Below the pieces are notes generated by a model. It did no database searches and was not told the DNA's origin. It was given only the letters and a program-made list of their open reading frames with translations. Shown here one piece after another: positions 54,716 to 64,000 of a stretch of DNA of 64,000 nucleotides. Positions within the stretch are counted from its first letter, which is position 1; each line of letters begins with the position of its first letter. The position numbers and the translations under genes are program-made. The DNA is from Pseudomonadota bacterium (GTDB lineage Bacteria; Pseudomonadota; Gammaproteobacteria; Enterobacterales; Alteromonadaceae), in NCBI GenBank assembly GCA_051750845.1, contig JBNJKC010000002.1:31910-95909 (forward strand), read 5' to 3'.

Positions 54716-54742
54716 GAACTTTATAAAAAGGGTCTAGTCACA
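54716..54742 (+). promoter_or_regulatory. Putative sigmaE-type promoter
   Basis: GAACTT (54716-54721), 16 nt, then TCACA (54738-54742). The established sigmaE consensus is GAACTT-N16-TCAAA. Confidence 0.55.
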
Positions 54743-54746
54743 ATAA

Positions 54747-54823
54747 GTGAGGGCATTAATCCTCCCTCACAAAATTGTTCTCCCTGGATTACTTTTGGCC
54801 CGGCTTTTTAGTCGGGCTTTTTT
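54747..54823 (+). ncRNA. Candidate ~77-nt sRNA at the Spot 42/ErsA position downstream of polA
   Basis: Upstream promoter motif; 5' hairpin GTGAGGG/CCCTCAC; pyrimidine-rich single-stranded middle; terminator GCCCGGCT/AGTCGGGC plus 6 U. Confidence 0.6.
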
Positions 54824-55739
54824 ATTGCTCTTTCTGCGGAATGCCGGCCAGGCCGGGACGACCCTTACGGTTGGCAAACCATACGCCAACAAGAATTGCC
54901 AACATACCAATACCTTGTTGTAACCAGAATGCTTCACCGTCAAGTACGCCCAGCAAAACGGCAACCACCGGAATGAGATAAGTGACTGAACTGGTAAACA
55001 CCGTATTGGTTAATTGCACAACGTGGTTAAAAATAACCAAAGCGCCGGCCGTTCCGGCAATACCCAAAGCTAAAACAGAGAACAGCGATAACATAGCGTC
55101 GGGTTGTTGAACCTGTGCTATAAATTCTGTGCCAGCAAACAAATAGACAGTAGCAGGAACCGCAGCCATGAGTAGCGATATACCTGTGATGGTTAACGGT
55201 GATAAGTCACTGATTTTATGTTTAATCAGGTTCAGGTTAAGGCCGTAACAAACCGTTGCTGCCATGACTAACAAAGCATAAAGGTTGAAGTCCCAACTGC
55301 CATTGGCGGAAGCGGTAACTAAAAGCAGAGTACCAAAGAGGCCTATACCGACACCGATAACCTGTGCTACTCGCGCCTTTTGATGGAAGAATAAAGAACC
55401 GATAACCAGAGTGGCTATGGGGGTTAAGGCATTCAGAACCCCAGTGACACCACTGGCCAATTGAGTTTGTGCTATTGCGAACATAAAAGCCGGAATTAGG
55501 CTGCCAACCAGACCAACACTGGCCAATTTCAGCCAATGCTTGCGGGTGATTTTGTTCAGGCGGCGAGCTATAAAGGGGGCTAGCACGATACCGGCCGAAC
55601 TAATGCGTAGAGCCCCAACTTCCATTGGCCCAAAAGCGAGTAGACCCTTTTTAATTAATAAAAAAGAGCTACCCCAAATTAATGCGAGTAACCCTAATAA
55701 TAACCAGGCGCTAAGCGGTGGTGTGTTATTCGTTGTCAT
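54822..55739 (-). CDS. DMT/EamA family transporter
   Basis: Ten hydrophobic segments; [10 protein letters not shown]; two EamA repeats; TYLIPVVAV. Confidence 0.92.
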
Positions 55740-56346
55740 ACTCTTTGCTATACCACTGGTTGAGTTTCTCTTCGACTTGCTCGACGCCGAAGCGTTTTAA
55801 TGAGGAAAATGCTTCGACCTGAACGTCACCATTAAAGGCAATTGCAGCTTGTCTTGCTTTTAACACCGTTGACTTACGAGCGCCCTGTTTAAGTTTGTCG
55901 GCTTTGGTGAGCAATACCAGTACCGGCAACTCACAATCAACAGCCCAGTAAATGAGTTCCTGATCGGTTTCGCGGAAAGGGTGACGGATGTCCATTAGTA
56001 CGACAATACCCTTGAGGCTGTCTCTTTGCTGAAGGTATTCGCTTAAAGAACGCTGCCACTTCTCTTTTACGGCCAGTGGCACCTTGGCAAAGCCATACCC
56101 TGGTAAGTCAATAAGGCGTTGACCGCTGTCGAGTTCGAACACATTAATTAGCTGGGTTCGTCCTGGAGTTTTACTGGTACGAGCCAGTGATTTTTGCCGC
56201 GTTAGTGTATTCAGAGCGCTGGATTTACCGGCATTAGAACGGCCGGCGAACGCAATTTCGATGCCTGTGTCCGGAGGCAGTTTGCTGATATCCGGTGCAC
56301 TGGTCACAAATTTTGCCGATGCGTAATCTAATTGCTGATCTGCCAC
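55726..56346 (-). CDS. engB: Ribosome biogenesis GTPase YihA/EngB
   Basis: [27 protein letters not shown]. Start placed at GTG 56346 (uncertain; the ORF track starts at 56424). Confidence 0.96.
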
Positions 56347-56541
56347 TATTAAGGTCACTTTTATTGATAAAACGGAACGTCTACGTGCATTATGAAGTAT
56401 CCGGACAGTATCTCCAATGATCATTTAGCAATTGATTCGGTTTTAATCGTTTAATCCACACAAGTTTTGTGTAAAATAGCAACCTGCTTAAGGTGATTTA
56501 TTGGGGCGCGTGGCGCCATCCAGAACAGAAGAGAAGCAAAC

Positions 56542-57211: not shown

Positions 57212-57311
57212 GTTCTTAATAAGAATAATTTAGAACCTTTCAGAGCTTATTCAGGAGTTTTAGTTCCCCATCGCTCATAGTTCATGCACCGTTTAGTAAA
57301 AGGTGCGAGAT

Positions 57312-60300
57312 ATGAGCGTCATAAAGTCCAGTCATAAAAATCCGTTTGCCACTGTAGTGGTATTTCTCATAGTTATTATTCTCGGTACGACCGCATTAAT
57401 TAATTTACCTATCCAATTGATGCCTAACATCGAGAAACCTGTCATTACTGTCATGAACTTTTGGCGGTCAGCTGCGCCAGAGGAAATGGAATCAGAAATT
57501 GTCGAACCGCAGGAAGAAATCATAAAGAACATTGTTGGGGTTGAATCGATAGAGACCTCCGTGCGCAATGGCTTTTCATTCACTACGATAGAGTTCAATT
57601 TGCAGCAAGATATGCAGCAAGGCTTTATTAATGTGATAAACGCACTGAATCAAGTGCAGGGAATGCCGCTCGAGGCCAGCGAACCAATGACGATTCTTGG
57701 GGAGTACCAAGCTGGCACAGCAACAATGATGATTCGTAAGTTGGGCGAAAACGAGACTAAAGACTTCACTGAGTACCAAGAGCTCATAAAGCACAAAGTC
57801 GCACCAAGGCTTCGCAATATTCCGGGAGTCACCAACGTTAGCTTGGCAAGCTACTTGACCAATCAACTGCAAGTTACTTTTGACCCGTATAAGTTAGCGG
57901 CTTTGGGCATTACTGTGCCTGAGCTAATGGGAAGAGTCACCGAGTCAAAAGACTTCTCTGGCGGTTTTGCTGATGTCGGACGTCGAGAGTATTCGGTAAG
58001 ATACCAAGGGCAGTTTTCTCCCGAAGAGCTTGAGCATTTGGTTGTATCACACAATGATGGGCGGCCAGTGTATCTTGGGGAAGTTGCGGACGTTGTTTTA
58101 GGGTTTGAAAAGCAATACAACTTTATCTATCGAAACTCTCAGCCTGGCTTTTACATCTCTCTGGACGCTTCTAAGCAAGCCAACACAATAGAAATATTTG
58201 AACACTTAAACAAAGTGATTGCTGAGCTTAACGAGCAAGAGTTGAACCCTCGTGGCTTAGATATGGTTTTGAGCTTCGATTCGTCTTCAGTGATCAAGCG
58301 CGCTATAAACTTAGTACAAAACAACTTGAGTATCGGCATTGCCCTCGCGTTGCTAATGCTTTATTGGATGATACGTGGCGCTCGTTCCACGATGCTAATT
58401 AGCATCACAATTCCCGTGTCATTGAGTGCAGCATTGTTGGGTTTGAGCTTCCTGGACCGCTCGTTGAATATTATTTCTCTGGCAGGTTTGGCGTTTTCCA
58501 CTGGCCTGGTATTGGATGCAGCGATTGTTGTTCAAGAAAATATTGTTCGACTTCGACAGCAAGGTCTTGAGTTGAAAAAGGCTGTTATTCAGGGGGCACA
58601 AGAAGTTTCTCGCGCATTGTTTGCTGCGACAGTAACGACCGTTGCTATTTTCTTGCCGGTTATTTTTATGGGAGGCATTGCAGGCCAGTTATTTTATGAC
58701 CTTGCTGTGACAATGAGTATTGCGGTCGTGGCCTCAACGCTAACAGCACTTTTATTGCTACCTGTGGTCGCTGCTTTTGTTCTCAAAGAATCTGAAAAAC
58801 AGACGAAACCCCTCGCTGTTTGGACTAAGTTATCTTCTGTCTATCAACGGTACTGCCGTACACCAAAGCAGATAATGGCATGGGCTGTTGGGTTAGGCCT
58901 TAGTTCTTTACTTTGTATTCTGTTGCTAATGCCAAAAACAGACTTTCTTCCTGAAGCTAAGTTCGAAGGTATTATCGCAGTACTTCAAACGCCTCCGTCA
59001 ACAAACTACCGAATTTTAGAACAGGAGTTAGCTAGAGAGCTTATTGAGCGGTTGGAGCCGTACCGCAACGGTGAGAAGTCTCCTCAAATTAAAGATTTTA
59101 ACCTAACCATGAGCTCTGGAGGTAAAGCGATTTTCATCTACCCCAGGGATCCGTCTAAGTCTGCGGAGCTATTGAGCGCTATTCGGCAGGATGTATTAAC
59201 CGGTCTACCTGACACCAAGGGCTTTGCTTTTAACATGTCGTTGATTAACTCAGTAAAAGTAGGGTCAGGTCGTAGCGTCTATATGGACTTCACCGGGCAA
59301 CTGGATGACACCACTCAGCTCGTTATAGAACGCACTATGAAACTAATAGCTGACCGCATTCCGGAATCATATGTGCGACGAGTGCCTAATGCACAGGCAG
59401 TCCAGGCAGAGCTACAAATCACACCAAATAACTATGCCATAGCAAACTCCGGGCTCACTCGTAATCAAGTTGGCCAAGTCATACGCAGTATGACGGACGG
59501 GCAGTTTGTTGGAGAGCATTACGACGGCATTTTAAGACGTGACGTCATTGTCAAGACCCTTCCATGGAGCACTCCGGAAGAGCTAGCGGCAATGCCAATT
59601 TATACGCCGAACAGTGGCATTCAAACTATTGATCAATTGACTGAGCAAAATAGAACTGTCTCGGCTACCGAGTTGCGTCGAATTGATGGTCAACGAGCGC
59701 TTACCATAGGTGTGACTCCTCCAGACGATTTTTCGCTCGAGGACACCATCAAAATTCTTCGTGAGCTGAAATTAGAAGCTGAGCAGCAATTGTCGAACCA
59801 GACCTTTATAAGCCTAAGCGGGGGGGCTGACGATTTAAAAGAGACTGTTAATACCATGGTCACGAATTTTGCATTTGCGATTTTAATATTGCTGTTAATT
59901 ATGGCGGCAATATTCCGCTCGGTTATCGACAGCCTGTTGGTGTTGCTAACGACTCCTATCGCTATCGCTGGGGGGACATTAGGCCTTTGGGTGTTGAATT
60001 TATTTAAGTTTCAGCCGCTTGACCTACTGACAATGATTGGGTTTGTCATTCTACTTGGTTTGGTGGTTAATAACGCCATTCTAATGATTGAGAAAACTCG
60101 CCAAGCTCAGCGTGAAGGCCTAACCATCGGCGATGCTATCTCTGAAGCAATAGCACAGCGAGTAAGACCCATTTATATGAGTTCATTGACGTCTGTTGTC
60201 GGGATGTTGCCCTTAGCCCTTATTCCTGGTGCTGGTAGTGAATTATACCAAGGGTTAGCGGTGGTTATTTTGAGTGGTATGGCGATAAGTACTTTATTTA

Positions 60301-60422
60301 CGGTATTTGCAATCAGCGCATTGCTCTACATAGCAGAGCGTCTATTCCCTAAACATTTCCTTTTGAATACTAGTGAGCTAGGCGGTTTACCTAAAACGAA
60401 CCCACTGAGAGGTGACTTATGA
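57312..60422 (+). CDS. RND efflux transporter permease subunit (AcrB/AcrD/AcrF family)
   Basis: About 1036 aa with two large periplasmic loops; GLVLDAAIVVQENI (TM4), GLVVNNAILMIE, RVRPIYMSSLT. Start placed at ATG 57312 (GTG 57303 possible). Confidence 0.93.
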   Translation: MSVIKSSHKNPFATVVVFLIVIILGTTALINLPIQLMPNIEKPVITVMNFWRSAAPEEMESEIVEPQEEIIKNIVGVESIETSVRNGFSFTTIEFNLQQDMQQGFINVINALNQVQGMPLEASEPMTILGEYQAGTATMMIRKLGENETKDFTEYQELIKHKVAPRLRNIPGVTNVSLASYLTNQLQVTFDPYKLAALGITVPELMGRVTESKDFSGGFADVGRREYSVRYQGQFSPEELEHLVVSHNDGRPVYLGEVADVVLGFEKQYNFIYRNSQPGFYISLDASKQANTIEIFEHLNKVIAELNEQELNPRGLDMVLSFDSSSVIKRAINLVQNNLSIGIALALLMLYWMIRGARSTMLISITIPVSLSAALLGLSFLDRSLNIISLAGLAFSTGLVLDAAIVVQENIVRLRQQGLELKKAVIQGAQEVSRALFAATVTTVAIFLPVIFMGGIAGQLFYDLAVTMSIAVVASTLTALLLLPVVAAFVLKESEKQTKPLAVWTKLSSVYQRYCRTPKQIMAWAVGLGLSSLLCILLLMPKTDFLPEAKFEGIIAVLQTPPSTNYRILEQELARELIERLEPYRNGEKSPQIKDFNLTMSSGGKAIFIYPRDPSKSAELLSAIRQDVLTGLPDTKGFAFNMSLINSVKVGSGRSVYMDFTGQLDDTTQLVIERTMKLIADRIPESYVRRVPNAQAVQAELQITPNNYAIANSGLTRNQVGQVIRSMTDGQFVGEHYDGILRRDVIVKTLPWSTPEELAAMPIYTPNSGIQTIDQLTEQNRTVSATELRRIDGQRALTIGVTPPDDFSLEDTIKILRELKLEAEQQLSNQTFISLSGGADDLKETVNTMVTNFAFAILILLLIMAAIFRSVIDSLLVLLTTPIAIAGGTLGLWVLNLFKFQPLDLLTMIGFVILLGLVVNNAILMIEKTRQAQREGLTIGDAISEAIAQRVRPIYMSSLTSVVGMLPLALIPGAGSELYQGLAVVILSGMAISTLFTVFAISALLYIAERLFPKHFLLNTSELGGLPKTNPLRGDL

Positions 60423-61492
60423 TTATTACTAAACGTATTACATTCACGGCATTATTAACGGCCTTGTTATTTAGCGTTATTGCGGAAGCGGATAACGCGC
60501 CGGTGGTATCTGTCGCCGCGGTAGAAGAAACTCGGTTGAGTCCGGCTGTTCGTGTTACTGGTCATGTGCAGTCACGATATCAAACCGAACTGTCTAGCGG
60601 TGTTGCAGGAGTTGTAGACTGGACAGCCGAAGAGGGCAAACATGTAAAACAAGGAGACGCTGTTGCAAAACTGGATACTACGCAATTGAAGCTCACCGAG
60701 CAGCGTCTTGCTGTGCAGGTAAAGCGACAAAAGGTAGAGCTGAATCGGCTAATGCAGGAGTATAATCGGTTAACCCGTTTAAAGAGCAGCAACTTAGTAT
60801 CTGAGCAAGTACTTGAAGGAGCAAAAGTGGATAAAGAGTTAGCTGAAGCCGACTTGCAATTATTGATGCTAGAACAACAGCAGGCGCAAGATAGCTTAAA
60901 CAAAGCTCTGGTAAAGGCTCCGTTTTCTGGCATTATCGCTAAGCGCTATGTGCGGGCAGGGCAAGCCGTAGGAAGCACCTCCGAGTTGATAAAGTTAGTC
61001 AGCCTCAAAGAGCTAGAAGTAAAGTTACACGGACCACTAAGCTATAGTCGTTATCTCGATTCTAAATACGCTGTTGAAGTTCACTTTAGTGATGGTCGAA
61101 CGCTATTACCGGTGCGAGCTGTTGTTGCTGTGAGTGACGAGCGTTCGCAGACATTCACAGCTTATCTTGACATTCCTAAACAGCAACTGAGCCGCTTTGA
61201 CATTGGACAAGTTGTCAGTGTCAGTGTTCCTAGTGCTAAGGAAGAAAACTATGTTTCCGTGCCGCGTGACGCTCTTGTTATCAAGTCATCAGGATACTTC
61301 GTGTATAAACTTGATAGCGAGAACAAAGCACATAAAATTTCGGTAGAGGTGACACAAGGCGTGGGTGAGCGCGTGGGAGTCACAGGAAACTTAGATATAG
61401 GAGAGAAAGTTATTGTCCGCGGTGCTGAAACACTTCGCGACGGGACGGTAGTTAAAATACTGACAGCTCATGAGTTTCCTTTGGCGAGCTAA
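60419..61492 (+). CDS. RND efflux periplasmic adaptor (membrane fusion protein)
   Basis: Signal peptide, lipoyl halves around a coiled coil, VKAPFSGII, VPRDAL, GEKVIVRG; ATGA-coupled to the RND gene. Confidence 0.93.
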   Translation: MIITKRITFTALLTALLFSVIAEADNAPVVSVAAVEETRLSPAVRVTGHVQSRYQTELSSGVAGVVDWTAEEGKHVKQGDAVAKLDTTQLKLTEQRLAVQVKRQKVELNRLMQEYNRLTRLKSSNLVSEQVLEGAKVDKELAEADLQLLMLEQQQAQDSLNKALVKAPFSGIIAKRYVRAGQAVGSTSELIKLVSLKELEVKLHGPLSYSRYLDSKYAVEVHFSDGRTLLPVRAVVAVSDERSQTFTAYLDIPKQQLSRFDIGQVVSVSVPSAKEENYVSVPRDALVIKSSGYFVYKLDSENKAHKISVEVTQGVGERVGVTGNLDIGEKVIVRGAETLRDGTVVKILTAHEFPLAS

Positions 61493-62949
61493 TTTTGAAT
61501 ATAATTTTTTACACGGCTCTTTAGTGAGTCAAACTTAGAGTCATTATTCAACGGTTGGTAGTGAGGGTCTATTGGAATGAATATCGCCGCAGGTTGTTTT
61601 GTTTCAATAGCCCTATTAAGCCAATGAATGGCTTGATCAAAATCGCCGGCAACTACTGCGTAACGAGCCCATGACAGAGGAGGAAGGTAATGCCCTAAAT
61701 TGGTATCCACCCGGCGGTCCAATAATTCCTGATAGACTGGACTAAGACCATGGTTATTGAATATGCTCTCATAGTGAGCAATTTGCTTTTCTGGAAAGTG
61801 TTGCTCTTTCATAAGTTGCTTTAGCGTTCGGAAAGCTTCTTCATCATTTCCTGTTAAGATAGCGATTCGGTTAAGGACGCGCTGAGATAGCCTTGACTCA
61901 GCTTCTGAATTTTCAATTCTTTGAACTTCCGCTGCGGCAAGATCATACTGTTCCTTAAATAGGTAAACGTAGGACATATTAAGGAACTTATAGTAATCTG
62001 GATTTTTGCGACGCAACTTGCCGAGAAACTTTTCAGCGTTTTCAAAGTCGCCAATAGAAATAAGAAACTCCGAGTATCCCTGATAAACAAGAGGATCCTC
62101 TGGACTGTATTTTAATGCGTTAAGGTAAGCGGCTTTCGCTGACTCAAACTCCCAATTGGCAATGTGTTTCAGCCACGCCTGTAGCAACCAGGCGTGGCCA
62201 TTTTCAGGCTCCTTTTCGAGTACGAAGTCCACAATTGACTGAACCTCACCTTTATAGATACCTATATCCCTGTAGCTGTTAAGCATGCTCAAATGGATTT
62301 TCGCTTGAGCTACAGTAAGGTAGGCGGGAAGGTAGCCTGGAGTTTGCTGAATAATGTCTCGGGCTATTGATATTGCTTTACGTTGGTGTTCTGGTTCCAT
62401 GACTTCGAGTGAGCTATTCGCTTTATTATGCTGCTCTATTACTGCTTTGGGATAAGCTGTCTCACTGTTGGCTTCAGGTACCCTTTTTAAAAGGTAAAAT
62501 GAACTGGCTCCAACGATAACTGCAACTATGGCTATTAACGCACCATAAATGGCTGGCTTCTTAGGTTTATGTTCTACCGGGGGGTTGGTCGGGAGCTGAT
62601 TGAGCGGTTGAAGCTTTTCCTGTGTTGCCTGCTTGACCTCAACCCTTGGTAGCCACTGATAGCCGTGACCGGAAAGCGTTTTTATAAAAGTAGGGTTATG
62701 GCGACTGTCACCGAGCACTTTTCGTAGTTTACTAATAGCTACTGAGAGACTATCCTCGTTAACGACCCGATCGGGCCACACCGCTTCAATGACTTCCAGT
62801 TTGCTGAGCTTTTCATTGTCGCTTTGGCAAAAGATGAGTAGAAGATCACTAACCCGCTGCTCCAAAATTTCGGAACGAGAGTTTAAAATCAGTAAGTTAG
62901 TCTCTGGTCGGAAGACGTAGTCTGAAAAGTGAAATTCGGTATTTTGCAT
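61489..62949 (-). CDS. ToxR/CadC-like membrane-anchored transcriptional regulator (winged helix, TM, TPR-like domain)
   Basis: VWPDRVVNEDSLSVAISKLRKVLGD...FIKTLSGHGYQ OmpR-type wHTH; one TM (AIYGALIAIVAVIVGASSFYLL); TPR-like helical C-terminus. Confidence 0.88.
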   Translation of the reverse strand: MQNTEFHFSDYVFRPETNLLILNSRSEILEQRVSDLLLIFCQSDNEKLSKLEVIEAVWPDRVVNEDSLSVAISKLRKVLGDSRHNPTFIKTLSGHGYQWLPRVEVKQATQEKLQPLNQLPTNPPVEHKPKKPAIYGALIAIVAVIVGASSFYLLKRVPEANSETAYPKAVIEQHNKANSSLEVMEPEHQRKAISIARDIIQQTPGYLPAYLTVAQAKIHLSMLNSYRDIGIYKGEVQSIVDFVLEKEPENGHAWLLQAWLKHIANWEFESAKAAYLNALKYSPEDPLVYQGYSEFLISIGDFENAEKFLGKLRRKNPDYYKFLNMSYVYLFKEQYDLAAAEVQRIENSEAESRLSQRVLNRIAILTGNDEEAFRTLKQLMKEQHFPEKQIAHYESIFNNHGLSPVYQELLDRRVDTNLGHYLPPLSWARYAVVAGDFDQAIHWLNRAIETKQPAAIFIPIDPHYQPLNNDSKFDSLKSRVKNYIQN

Positions 62950-63056
62950 TTGGTCTTTTATTTCTTACTATAGCTAAAGTTGTGTCCGAGTGGCAAATGA
63001 ATTCACTTTGTTAACGAAAAGTAATAAGAAAGTTGTTTTTTAGATCAATAAAATCA

Positions 63057-63084
63057 TTGAATTAATATTTGGTTCAAGTAGTCT
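63057..63084 (+). promoter_or_regulatory. Putative sigma70 promoter of the long ncRNA candidate
   Basis: TTGAAT (63057-63062), 16 nt, then TAGTCT (63079-63084). Confidence 0.4.
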
Positions 63085-63090
63085 TAACAA

Positions 63091-63427
63091 CGCTCCGGGG
63101 CCGTACGGACAGAAAAAAACAAAAAAAAGATGTTAAAAGCCCTTGAGGAAATAATAAAAAGACTGTAAAAATACAGCTGACTCGACACAAAAAAATAACA
63201 AGAGGTCGGGAGATTATCGAAAAGTCGGATTCCATCTTATTTCTCGATAATCCAGGGAGTAAAGCCAATAGGCTAGAGGTTGCTCCATTTTATAATAACA
63301 ATAATAAAAGAAAGGTTACGGAAAACCGCAATAACAAGTCGGAAGCAGTGACAACCATTCTCATAGTTGCAGTGCGCTGCCGATAATATGAGAGAAGCAG
63401 GCGATGTGTAAAAGCATCGCCTTTTTT
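63091..63427 (+). ncRNA. Candidate ~335-nt protein/sRNA-sponging RNA (CsrB/C-like GGA motifs plus CrcZ-like AANAANAA tracts)
   Basis: No credible ORF. Hairpins alternate with A-rich linkers; 7 GGA motifs; 5 AANAANAA tracts; terminator AGGCGATG/CATCGCCT plus T-run (63399-63427). Lies upstream of yihI, where enterobacterial csrC sits. Confidence 0.65.
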
Positions 63428-63551
63428 CTTATCTGAGCCAAGCCTTTCTTATAGCGTACAGCCTTTTCCTTTTTGTATTTTACCCTCCCACTGACGTCAT
63501 CCCCGTTAATGAGTTACAATAGGTCATATTAGTTTTTATTTAGGAGCGACC

Positions 63552-63965
63552 ATGACTCGCCGCAAAAAAACACGTAAGGCAGGGCCTTTGGCGCCGTCTA
63601 AAACGCCAAAAGAAAAACAGGCGTCAGATGCCGCCTCAAAAGGTAAAAAGAAGGGCAAGGGTCAACCGTCAGGCCAACGACATTCATCGGCTAAAGTTTT
63701 ACAGCAAAGTAGAACAAAAGGTGATGAGAAAGATCCCCGACATGGTAGTCGCCGTAAGGTAGCTTTGGTGATAACACCTGAGCAGGAACTAAAACAGTTG
63801 CAGGAAGACACTAAACTTCAGTTACTGGTTGAACGTTTCGAAAATGATGAGTCTCTGACAGCAGAAGAGCAGCGCTACCTCGATGAAAAATCTGAGCGTT
63901 ATGAGCAGCTGGTTGCCAAACTGGGTTATGAACTCGATGAAGAATGGGATGATGAGGAGCACTAA
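63552..63965 (+). CDS. yihI: Der GTPase-activating protein YihI
   Basis: Basic N-terminus MTRRKKTRK; GKGQPSGQRHS; KDPRHGSRRKVAL; acidic C-terminus. Confidence 0.9.
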   Translation: MTRRKKTRKAGPLAPSKTPKEKQASDAASKGKKKGKGQPSGQRHSSAKVLQQSRTKGDEKDPRHGSRRKVALVITPEQELKQLQEDTKLQLLVERFENDESLTAEEQRYLDEKSERYEQLVAKLGYELDEEWDDEEH

Positions 63966-64000
63966 TGTCCAGCGAACTCTATTGGATTATCGCCATTGTC
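63965..64000 (+). CDS. 5' end of a membrane-anchored protein, possibly DUF2489 family (partial)
   Basis: ATG overlaps the yihI stop (TAATG) and reads MSSELYWIIAIV. The family guess rests only on usual synteny with yihI. Confidence 0.4.
   Translation, partial: MSSELYWIIAIV

Follow-up and report, generated by a model that had tools for sequence, protein, structure and literature searches.

The window analysed here is a stretch of 64,000 nucleotides (nt) of contig JBNJKC010000002.1 from a bacterium of the family Alteromonadaceae. The element in question is a non-coding RNA near its downstream end, located between the gene of a CadC/TPR-type regulator (61489-62949, - strand), which is its divergent neighbour, and yihI, which lies downstream on the same strand as the RNA and was recognized by its YihI Pfam match. 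At the protein level, YihI of the window shares 96% identity with its counterpart in Idiomarina abyssalis KMM 227. The yihI-linked Idiomarina RNA is a real, discrete and very abundant non-coding RNA of ~336 nt, extending from 63092 to ~63427 on the + strand. In E. coli the corresponding order is polA, spf, yihA (-), csrC and yihI, with csrC in the same position and orientation as the Idiomarina RNA.

The RNA is preceded by a sigma70-type promoter (63057..63084, +), consisting of the -35 hexamer TTGAAT at 63057-63062, a 16-nt spacer and the -10 hexamer TAGTCT at 63079-63084. The promoter is conserved, and its TTG and TAnnnT columns are invariant in an alignment of 19 Idiomarina species. Directly upstream, from -71 to -36 (63021..63056, +), a conserved A/T-rich element (GTAATAAGAAAGTTGTTTTTTAGATCAATAAAATCA) has many invariant columns in the same 19 species and is either UP-element-like or an activator site. 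The RNA ends in a strong intrinsic terminator (63399..63430, +; AGGCGAUG..CAUCGCCU and U6), in which a stem of invariant sequence (63399-63422) is followed by the U tract. Within the RNA, no + strand open reading frame of 30 or more amino acids was found, and the predicted fold has a minimum free energy z-score of -5.95 relative to shuffles. No TGTAAGN6CTTACA box for UvrY/GacA was found within 3 mismatches anywhere near the promoter, and no conserved GG-N10-GC of a sigma54 promoter was seen when the sequence was read by eye. A Fur box over the -35 hexamer was discarded, as only 12 of 19 positions matched the consensus. The initial annotation, made from the letters of the window, had proposed this promoter, the strong terminator beginning at 63399, an interval free of a credible open reading frame, and a location outside any sigma54 or cbrB context. 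All of these proposals were borne out, the neighbours being yihI downstream and cytochrome c4 or the regulator upstream.

The transcript is documented by assembled contigs of public RNA runs, which hold no strand or read-level information. Two runs with one labelled organism yielded a contig of ~800x starting exactly at 63092, together with a contig over 63008-63121 at 17x and yihI at 24-40x. The resulting depth step of ~45-fold is located 8 nt downstream of the -10 hexamer and fits the TTGAAT/TAGTCT promoter. Contigs from four metatranscriptomic runs covered ~63106-63400 at 17-3600x, with the flanks and yihI at 0-35x. The depth over the RNA is 20-100 times that of yihI and falls before the terminator, so that the discrete transcript postulated at the outset is indeed present.

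It is also necessary to consider that there is no independent RNA, and that the interval is a long 5' leader of yihI or a set of DNA-level UP or IHF elements serving the neighbouring genes. A low-depth contig passes the terminator into yihI in one run, which means that some read-through exists. However, the excess of depth over yihI and its fall ahead of a strong, invariant terminator, as well as the covariation of the helices described below, make this explanation very improbable. In addition, a gene other than yihI follows the RNA in two Idiomarina species (G014 and G021), where the open reading frame right after the terminator begins with MLLLCPLCESHTQFYARDRRRSFYQCEHCQLVF...; in G014, yihI is located ~700 nt further downstream. 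The RNA thus keeps its own terminator and identity whatever gene follows. The divergent regulator is absent from most Idiomarina species, all of which still carry the RNA, and in most other species of the genus the terminator of the cytochrome c gene abuts the RNA promoter directly. This shows that the regulator and its adjoining pump genes are a local insertion and that the A tracts of the RNA cannot serve the regulator. The alternative considered in the initial annotation, in which these tracts are UP or IHF-type elements of the divergent regulator gene, is thereby refuted.

The complete order of genes in this part of the window is polA, a small RNA candidate (54735-54826), an EamA transporter (-), an EngB/YihA-type GTPase (55726-56424, -), a di-haem cytochrome c, an RND pump with its membrane-fusion protein, the CadC/TPR-type regulator (-), the RNA and yihI. 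The section between yihA/engB and the RNA therefore contains cytochrome c4 and an inserted efflux-pump/regulator block. This block (57303-62949) codes for the RND efflux pump, the membrane-fusion protein and a CadC/OmpR-type winged-helix regulator with TPR repeats, and it occurs only in the clade of the window genome. The earlier description of the locus as the csrC position is correct with respect to yihI, which is downstream and on the same strand. The yihA/engB gene is found 6.7 kb upstream, behind cytochrome c4 and the inserted block.

The RNA is single-copy, as nhmmer with four profiles found no paralogues in the genome, and an initial search recovered it from 24 of 24 Idiomarina genomes. 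In the 19-species alignment, the promoter is invariant, the 5' domain is variable and the 3' two-thirds are strongly conserved. Ten helices were defined in this alignment and pairing was counted for each alignment cell; 92.8% of 930 cells are paired. Base pairs with changes on both sides number 15 as against 5.8 in shuffles, a value reached by none of 500 shuffles, and when the partners were slid by 1-3 columns as a control the pairing dropped to only 35-47%. The covariation is found mostly in H1, H2 and H3. The G-U pairs fit transcription from the + strand, as in the case of one H5 pair that is UG in 12 sequences.

The first section of the RNA, from the 5' end at ~63092 (the start of the high-depth contig) to 63148 (63092..63148, +), is a variable stem-loop domain that aligns poorly between species and holds the A tract 63113-63130 and two non-conserved GGA at 63107 and 63147. 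It is followed by the hairpin H1, CUGU-AAAAAU-ACAG (63163..63176, +), where three of the four pairs show changes on both sides, and by the hairpin H2 (63181..63210, +), in which four of the six stem pairs covary around a nearly invariant 18-nt loop. The long hairpin H3 (GAUUAUCGA / UCGAUAAUC; 63212..63252, +) has 9 pairs, 3 double changes and 89% of its cells paired, and its variable tip is again A-rich in other species. The helix count of the alignment also gives the hairpin H4, GGAG..CUCC with the inner AGCC-AAUA-GGCU (63256..63286, +), the hairpin H5, GGUU-ACGGAA-AACC (63314..63327, +; stem 98.7% paired, one double change), and the hairpin H7/H8, UCUCAUA..GCAG-UGCG-CUGC..UAUGAGA (63359..63393, +; 92-95% of cells paired). 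Stems AGCC/GGCT and TCTCATA/TATGAGA had been noted previously and are present, and a third, reported as CTGTA/TACAG, is CTGT/ACAG here. A long-range pairing of CCAGGGAGU with GACAACC, suggested by RNAalifold, involves columns that are all invariant and was replaced by local covarying helices.

CsrA dimers bind paired GGA sites, with a preference for those in hairpin loops. The Idiomarina RNA contains seven GGA, at 63107, 63147, 63209, 63227, 63256, 63320 and 63341, exactly where they had been placed by the initial annotation. Three of the seven (63256, 63320 and 63341) are invariant in Idiomarina and Pseudidiomarina while their flanks vary. The remaining four differ even among close relatives and are chance occurrences. 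Conserved site A (CCAGGGAG; 63252..63259, +) contains CCAGGGA at 63252-63258, with UCC.GGG invariant in the two genera. Site B is ACGGAA (63318-63323) in the hexaloop of H5, the classic hairpin GGTT-ACGGAA-AACC at 63314-63327 recognized from the start; its stem is conserved and its GGA invariant. Site C, with CGGAAG at 63340-63345, is located 21 nt after the H5 site and belongs to the conserved segment UCGGAAGCAG (63339..63362, +), which continues into the block GACAACC.UUCUC and is invariant in both genera. The counterpart of H4 in Pseudidiomarina and Aliidiomarina reads GCC-AGGA-GGC, while in Idiomarina it is AGCC-AAUA-GGCU, so that the erosion of a GGA site is shown directly.

A scan of the genome for ANGGA density gave no other GGA-dense non-coding region, the results being a 6S-like RNA and the clpS coding region. 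The former (G000:C1:670851-671150, +) has the top ANGGA count among the non-coding stretches of the genome and resembles a long irregular 6S-type hairpin with the ends CUGGGGAUGCG...UGCAUCCCGGC.

The second feature of the RNA is a series of AAN tracts at 63115-63128, 63150-63160, 63191-63201, 63294-63307 (AATAACAATAATAA) and 63330-63337. Five A-rich tracts had been predicted, and all five were recovered, the third now being given as 63191-63201 in place of 63194. The motif AANAANAA occurs 11 times over the five tracts where 2.35 are expected (P=0.001, ~5-fold) according to 2000 dinucleotide-preserving shuffles, which served for the GGA counts of this RNA as well. The tracts are unpaired and occupy the linkers as well as the H2 loop of 18 nt; their A-A positions are invariant and the third position varies between U, C and A. 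Tract 2 (AAAUAAUAAAAAGA; 63149..63162, +) is a single-stranded linker with its A's invariant in the register AA.AA.AAG and N varying, and tract 3 (ACAAAAAAAUAACAAGAG; 63187-63204, +) is the nearly invariant H2 loop itself. Tract 4 (AUAAUAACAAUAAUAAAAGAAAG; 63292..63314, +) is the longest with ~7 ARN triplets and has AA.AA.AA columns invariant in two genera, and tract 5 (AAUAACAAG; 63330..63338, +) is a linker with AA.AA invariant. Within the 336 nt, four tracts have at least 4 ARN triplets and one has 3.

The enrichment extends to the related genera. In 12 of the 15 clade RNAs tested, AANAANAA was counted 7-19 times against an expectation of 1-3.5 (P<=0.003), and in the remaining three it was counted 4 times against 0.5-0.8 (P=0.007-0.017). 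In eight Idiomarina RNAs, A-runs of exactly two are ~2x over-represented with respect to a geometric expectation. The index n2^2/(n1*n3) is 2.8 for Idiomarina RNAs, compared with 1.3 for the whole window and 1.3 for GGA-rich relatives. The mixed GGA/ARN make-up of the Idiomarina RNA is real and selected. The low GGA density and high ARN content remarked upon in the initial annotation were found again, and both features are conserved.

The ancestry of the RNA was examined with covariance models. A cmscan search of 60000-64000 against Rfam (E up to 10) gave no CsrB, CsrC, RsmY, PrrB_RsmZ, rsmX or CrcZ match, and the CsrB model had no match in the whole genome. STnc240 on the terminator and a mouse long non-coding RNA were rejected as noise matches. 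In a control, the Rfam CsrB and CsrC models also missed the RNA that occupies this locus in a sister genus and has 12 GGA. Since Rfam fails to recognize bona fide GGA-rich RNAs at this locus, the missing match says little. It had been suggested beforehand that the lack of an Rfam hit would support novelty. The match is indeed missing, but this does not make the RNA new in kind; it is a diverged member of the yihI-linked Csr lineage.

The model R1, built from the 3' domain of the Idiomarina RNA, scored 97-147 bits in all five Pseudidiomarina genomes searched. The other genera gave nine borderline genome-wide matches, three of which lie immediately upstream of yihI, two in Aliidiomarina and one in a genus whose genome measures 6.5 Mb. 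In the latter, the RNA at yihI has 12 GGA, and small hairpins present many of these as A(N)GGA. The 700-nt region preceding yihI was surveyed in 40 genomes from 35 genera, and about 15 other Alteromonadaceae genera have a terminator-ended, GGA-rich RNA-like stretch at this place (7-13 GGA per 340 nt, mostly P<0.03). When R1 was used in an unfiltered search of the 40 loci and the E. coli csrC locus (32 kb), the 15 best matches all had the orientation of yihI, at E values between 2.5e-4 and 0.07. The aligned parts are the A-rich tract, the UACGGAAG hairpin, a second GGAAG and the GCGAUG..CAUCGC terminator, and H5 aligns with the GUCAGGAAGAC hairpin of the GGA-rich relatives. A BLAST match in another family (L027) was spurious, as it lies inside a coding region. 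Because R1 finds GGA-rich RNAs at yihI on the same strand, the Idiomarina RNA can be assigned to the yihI-linked Csr lineage; judged from these alignments, it is a diverged descendant of yihI-linked Csr-type RNAs and not an unrelated new class. Predicted csrC genes are always near yihI and yihA, in a table that does not include Idiomarina (Kulkarni et al. 2006, PMC1488887).

Along this lineage the composition changes considerably. The CsrC of E. coli has 14 GGA and no AANAANAA. Most other Alteromonadaceae genera with an RNA at the locus are enriched in GGA and moderately enriched in AANAANAA (1-14). The RNAs of Idiomarina, Pseudidiomarina and Aliidiomarina have 2-8 GGA, which is at expectation, and 4-19 AANAANAA compared with 0.5-3.5 expected.

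This descent could mean that the RNA is a plain, slimmed-down CsrA sponge, in which three GGA act at very high abundance and the AAN tracts are spacers or elements of stability or turnover. The retention of a canonical GGA in a hairpin loop, the canonical CsrA encoded by a genome with no other candidate sponge, and the presence of A-rich linkers in the GGA-rich relatives are all in agreement with such a function. However, the frequency of GGA is at chance level, and the linkers hold strictly to an AA-N phase in which A never changes and N is free, a register which spacers do not need. The AAN motif in the clade is also enriched 5- to 10-fold, far beyond the relatives and E. coli CsrC, where it does not occur. 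A sponge for CsrA only is considered rather unlikely.

The proteins with which the RNA might interact were compared with their E. coli counterparts. The CsrA encoded by the genome is canonical. Over residues 1-66, Hfq shares 94% identity with the E. coli protein, and the distal-face residues Y25, G29, I30 and K31 are intact. The regulator in the UvrY/GacA position, directly upstream of uvrC (G000:C1:476312-476929), has UvrY/SirA/GacA as its best NCBIfam match, at 129 bits for a cut-off of 280. Its DNA-binding domain is UvrY-like, and the protein is 34% identical to E. coli UvrY, but the acidic (DD) pocket and the phospho-acceptor Asp are missing; the receiver motif is VVVLCSQLGG where the canonical one is VVLMDMSMPG. 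The degenerate receiver is also found in Pseudidiomarina and Aliidiomarina (clade UvrY 33-37% identical to E. coli UvrY), while six genera with GGA-rich RNAs have a canonical UvrY that is 68-72% identical to that of E. coli. The remodelling of the RNA and the decay of the receiver thus coincide. This is a correlation across one clade, i.e. one evolutionary event. A link to GcvB, raised in the initial annotation, was not upheld: the sole genome match to GcvB, at 25.6 bits, is below the family cut-off and continuous with a long open reading frame, and its duplex with the RNA is no better than shuffles.

The absence of the phospho-acceptor Asp suggests that the classical Gac/Csr input has been rewired, and it would agree with an RNA centred on Hfq, either a CrcZ-like distal-face decoy or a long Hfq-dependent RNA, with the GGA being vestigial or used for base pairing. 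CrcZ from Pseudomonas, with a length of 407 nt, has six (A-R-N)n tracts with n>=4, which are bound by the Hfq distal face, and it titrates Hfq (PMC4063720). The ARN tracts of the Idiomarina RNA approach this number, its terminator is U-tailed with an invariant stem sequence, and its GGA are eroded, including the AGGA loop that Pseudidiomarina and Aliidiomarina still keep. On the other hand, three GGA remain invariant across genera despite changing flanks, no Crc was found among the EEP genes scanned, and neither a CbrB context nor a sigma54 promoter was seen. A mainly Hfq-centred function is considered unlikely.

The reading that we prefer, tentatively and at somewhat less than an even chance, is that the Idiomarina RNA is a remodelled decoy, which binds a few CsrA dimers and in addition the distal face of Hfq. 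Transcribed from the sigma70-type promoter, the single-copy, highly abundant RNA of ~336 nt is the Idiomarina form of the yihI-linked Csr-type sponge RNA. In Idiomarina, Pseudidiomarina and Aliidiomarina most of the GGA sites have been lost, and the three that stay invariant would suffice for one or two CsrA dimers on each molecule. Four or five (AAN)n tracts with n=3-7 are displayed by the unpaired linkers and the one 18-nt loop. As a protein decoy, the RNA could still titrate CsrA through its GGA module, while the AAN tracts and the U-tailed terminator may occupy the distal and proximal faces of Hfq in a CrcZ-like manner.

Several observations weigh against this proposal, besides the missing Rfam matches. 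The GGA count is not enriched, with 7 found and 5.9 expected (P=0.37), and neither is ANGGA, with 3 found and 2.3 expected. Site A is partly inside the helices H3/H4. A-rich linkers are present, with weaker enrichment, in the GGA-rich relatives too, and might simply serve as unstructured spacers, the genome being AT-rich. No Crc-named protein was found among the EEP-family genes scanned (two of five, which are exonuclease III and one unnamed). Finally, the 5' end is derived from contig boundaries, not from mapped reads, and the contigs of the RNA runs are strandless.

A further RNA of the same locus deserves comparison. The small RNA candidate at 54716-54826 (+), directly after polA, occupies the slot of Spot 42 in E. 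coli. It has a sigmaE-like promoter, GAACTT-N16-TCACA, a covarying 5' hairpin, a terminator and an invariant single-stranded seed, UUGUUCUCCCUGGAU. Each of the 28 Idiomarina genomes searched has it, as does Pseudidiomarina, and it belongs to no Rfam family, the best match of 28.7 bits being below the cut-off of that family. Among 59 genera of the family, 56 yielded weaker relatives with the model R2, which represents this small RNA; their seeds are CUCCCUUUG, CUCCCUGAAA and similar. One genome has 14 matches, 13 of which are clustered in 26 kb (G177:C1:3612943-3638598). The R2 relatives may form a widespread family of anti-Shine-Dalgarno small RNAs, or may in part be terminator-driven matches.

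The segment UAAUCCAGGGAG of the Idiomarina RNA (63248-63259) is complementary at 12 of 12 positions to the seed segment CUCCCUGGAUUA of the polA-linked small RNA (54780-54791). The longer RNA could accordingly be a sponge or a target of this sigmaE-type small RNA, a role compatible with the other readings, which we regard as possible but somewhat doubtful. A perfect 12-nt complement between two conserved RNAs has a rough chance estimate of ~1.5e-3 for 77 x 336 nt, and the duplex beats a shuffled partner in all but 0.3% of shuffles. The seed is invariant across all Idiomarina and Pseudidiomarina, and its UGGAUU extension occurs only in genera whose long RNA has AAUCCA, other genera reading CUCCCUUUG or CUCCCUGAAA. 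However, there is no covariation at the two 12-mers, because both are invariant within Idiomarina, and in Pseudidiomarina an uncompensated A-C mismatch leaves 10 base pairs. In the long RNA most of the site is enclosed in H3/H4, complementarity to GGA or Shine-Dalgarno-like sites is to be expected of anti-Shine-Dalgarno seeds anyway, and the RNA runs contain hardly any trace of the small RNA.

A more far-reaching scenario is that of a Csr sponge changing its client. The BarA-UvrY phosphorelay would have decayed, the GGA array would have been lost and a CrcZ-like AAN array gained, so that the RNA couples CsrA (through three GGA), the Hfq distal face and a sigmaE-type small RNA (through the 12-nt site). 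We consider this complete scheme decidedly improbable. Nevertheless, the locus is of general interest. Csr/Rsm sponges and CrcZ-type Hfq decoys are usually treated as two separate ways to titrate a global RNA-binding protein. Here one RNA lineage at one locus goes from a GGA-rich form, in most Alteromonadaceae and in E. coli csrC, to a GGA-poor and AAN-rich form in Idiomarina, Pseudidiomarina and Aliidiomarina, and the shift in composition accompanies a UvrY/GacA that is no longer phosphorylatable at the usual aspartate. Should Hfq be bound by the AAN tracts, a CrcZ-like decoy would exist outside the Crc/CbrB system of the Pseudomonas type, and a sponge RNA would have evolved a new protein client. 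The RNA would then also show how a Csr circuit works in small-genome marine bacteria. No papers on small RNAs, CsrA or Hfq of Idiomarina were found in the literature, and the RNA represents an unannotated, highly expressed family, overlooked by the current Rfam models throughout an entire family of bacteria.

In comparison with known systems, the Idiomarina RNA is like CrcZ/CrcY of Pseudomonas in being several hundred nt long and abundant, in its repeated AAnAAnAA/(A-R-N)n tracts with n>=4 in single-stranded regions, and in that an Hfq with an intact distal face is encoded. It differs from them in having no sequence or model similarity, in a promoter of the sigma70 type instead of a CbrB/sigma54-dependent one, and in a location that does not adjoin cbrB, in a genome whose scanned EEP-family genes included none for a Crc-like protein. 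Conserved GGA sites and a Csr ancestry further separate it from CrcZ.

RsmY of Pseudomonas is also bound by Hfq (PMC4063720), and is an RsmA sponge that is bound and stabilised by it (cited in PMC4063720). RsmY is shorter (~120 nt), GGA-rich and GacA-dependent, has no phased AAN array and showed no detectable homology to the Idiomarina RNA. By analogy, however, it offers the dual situation proposed here, in which a single RNA would combine GGA sites of the CsrA/RsmA type with Hfq binding.

The GGA-rich RNAs of other Alteromonadaceae share with the Idiomarina RNA the locus, the strand, a terminator of the GCGAUG..CAUCGC-U6 type, the GUCAGGAAGAC / GUUACGGAAGAC hairpin and the A-rich linkers. They differ in their 7-13 GGA, which are significantly enriched, in an AAN enrichment that is only moderate, and in the canonical UvrY of their genomes. 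A further comparison is that with CsrC (E. coli/Salmonella, RF00084, and the predicted yihI-linked csrC of Vibrio/Photobacterium; Kulkarni et al. 2006, PMC1488887). E. coli CsrC has 14 GGA in 246 nt and no AAN tract, while the Idiomarina RNA has 7 GGA, of which 3 are conserved and which are not enriched, and five AAN tracts; it is also without an Rfam match and without a UvrY/GacA box, in a clade whose UvrY has no phospho-acceptor Asp. Nevertheless, both RNAs are located upstream of yihI on the same strand, in the common neighbourhood polA - small RNA - yihA - RNA - yihI. Both have their own promoter and terminator, a length of a few hundred nt and a GGA in a hairpin loop, and the GGA-rich RNAs of the sister genera provide the link of descent between them.

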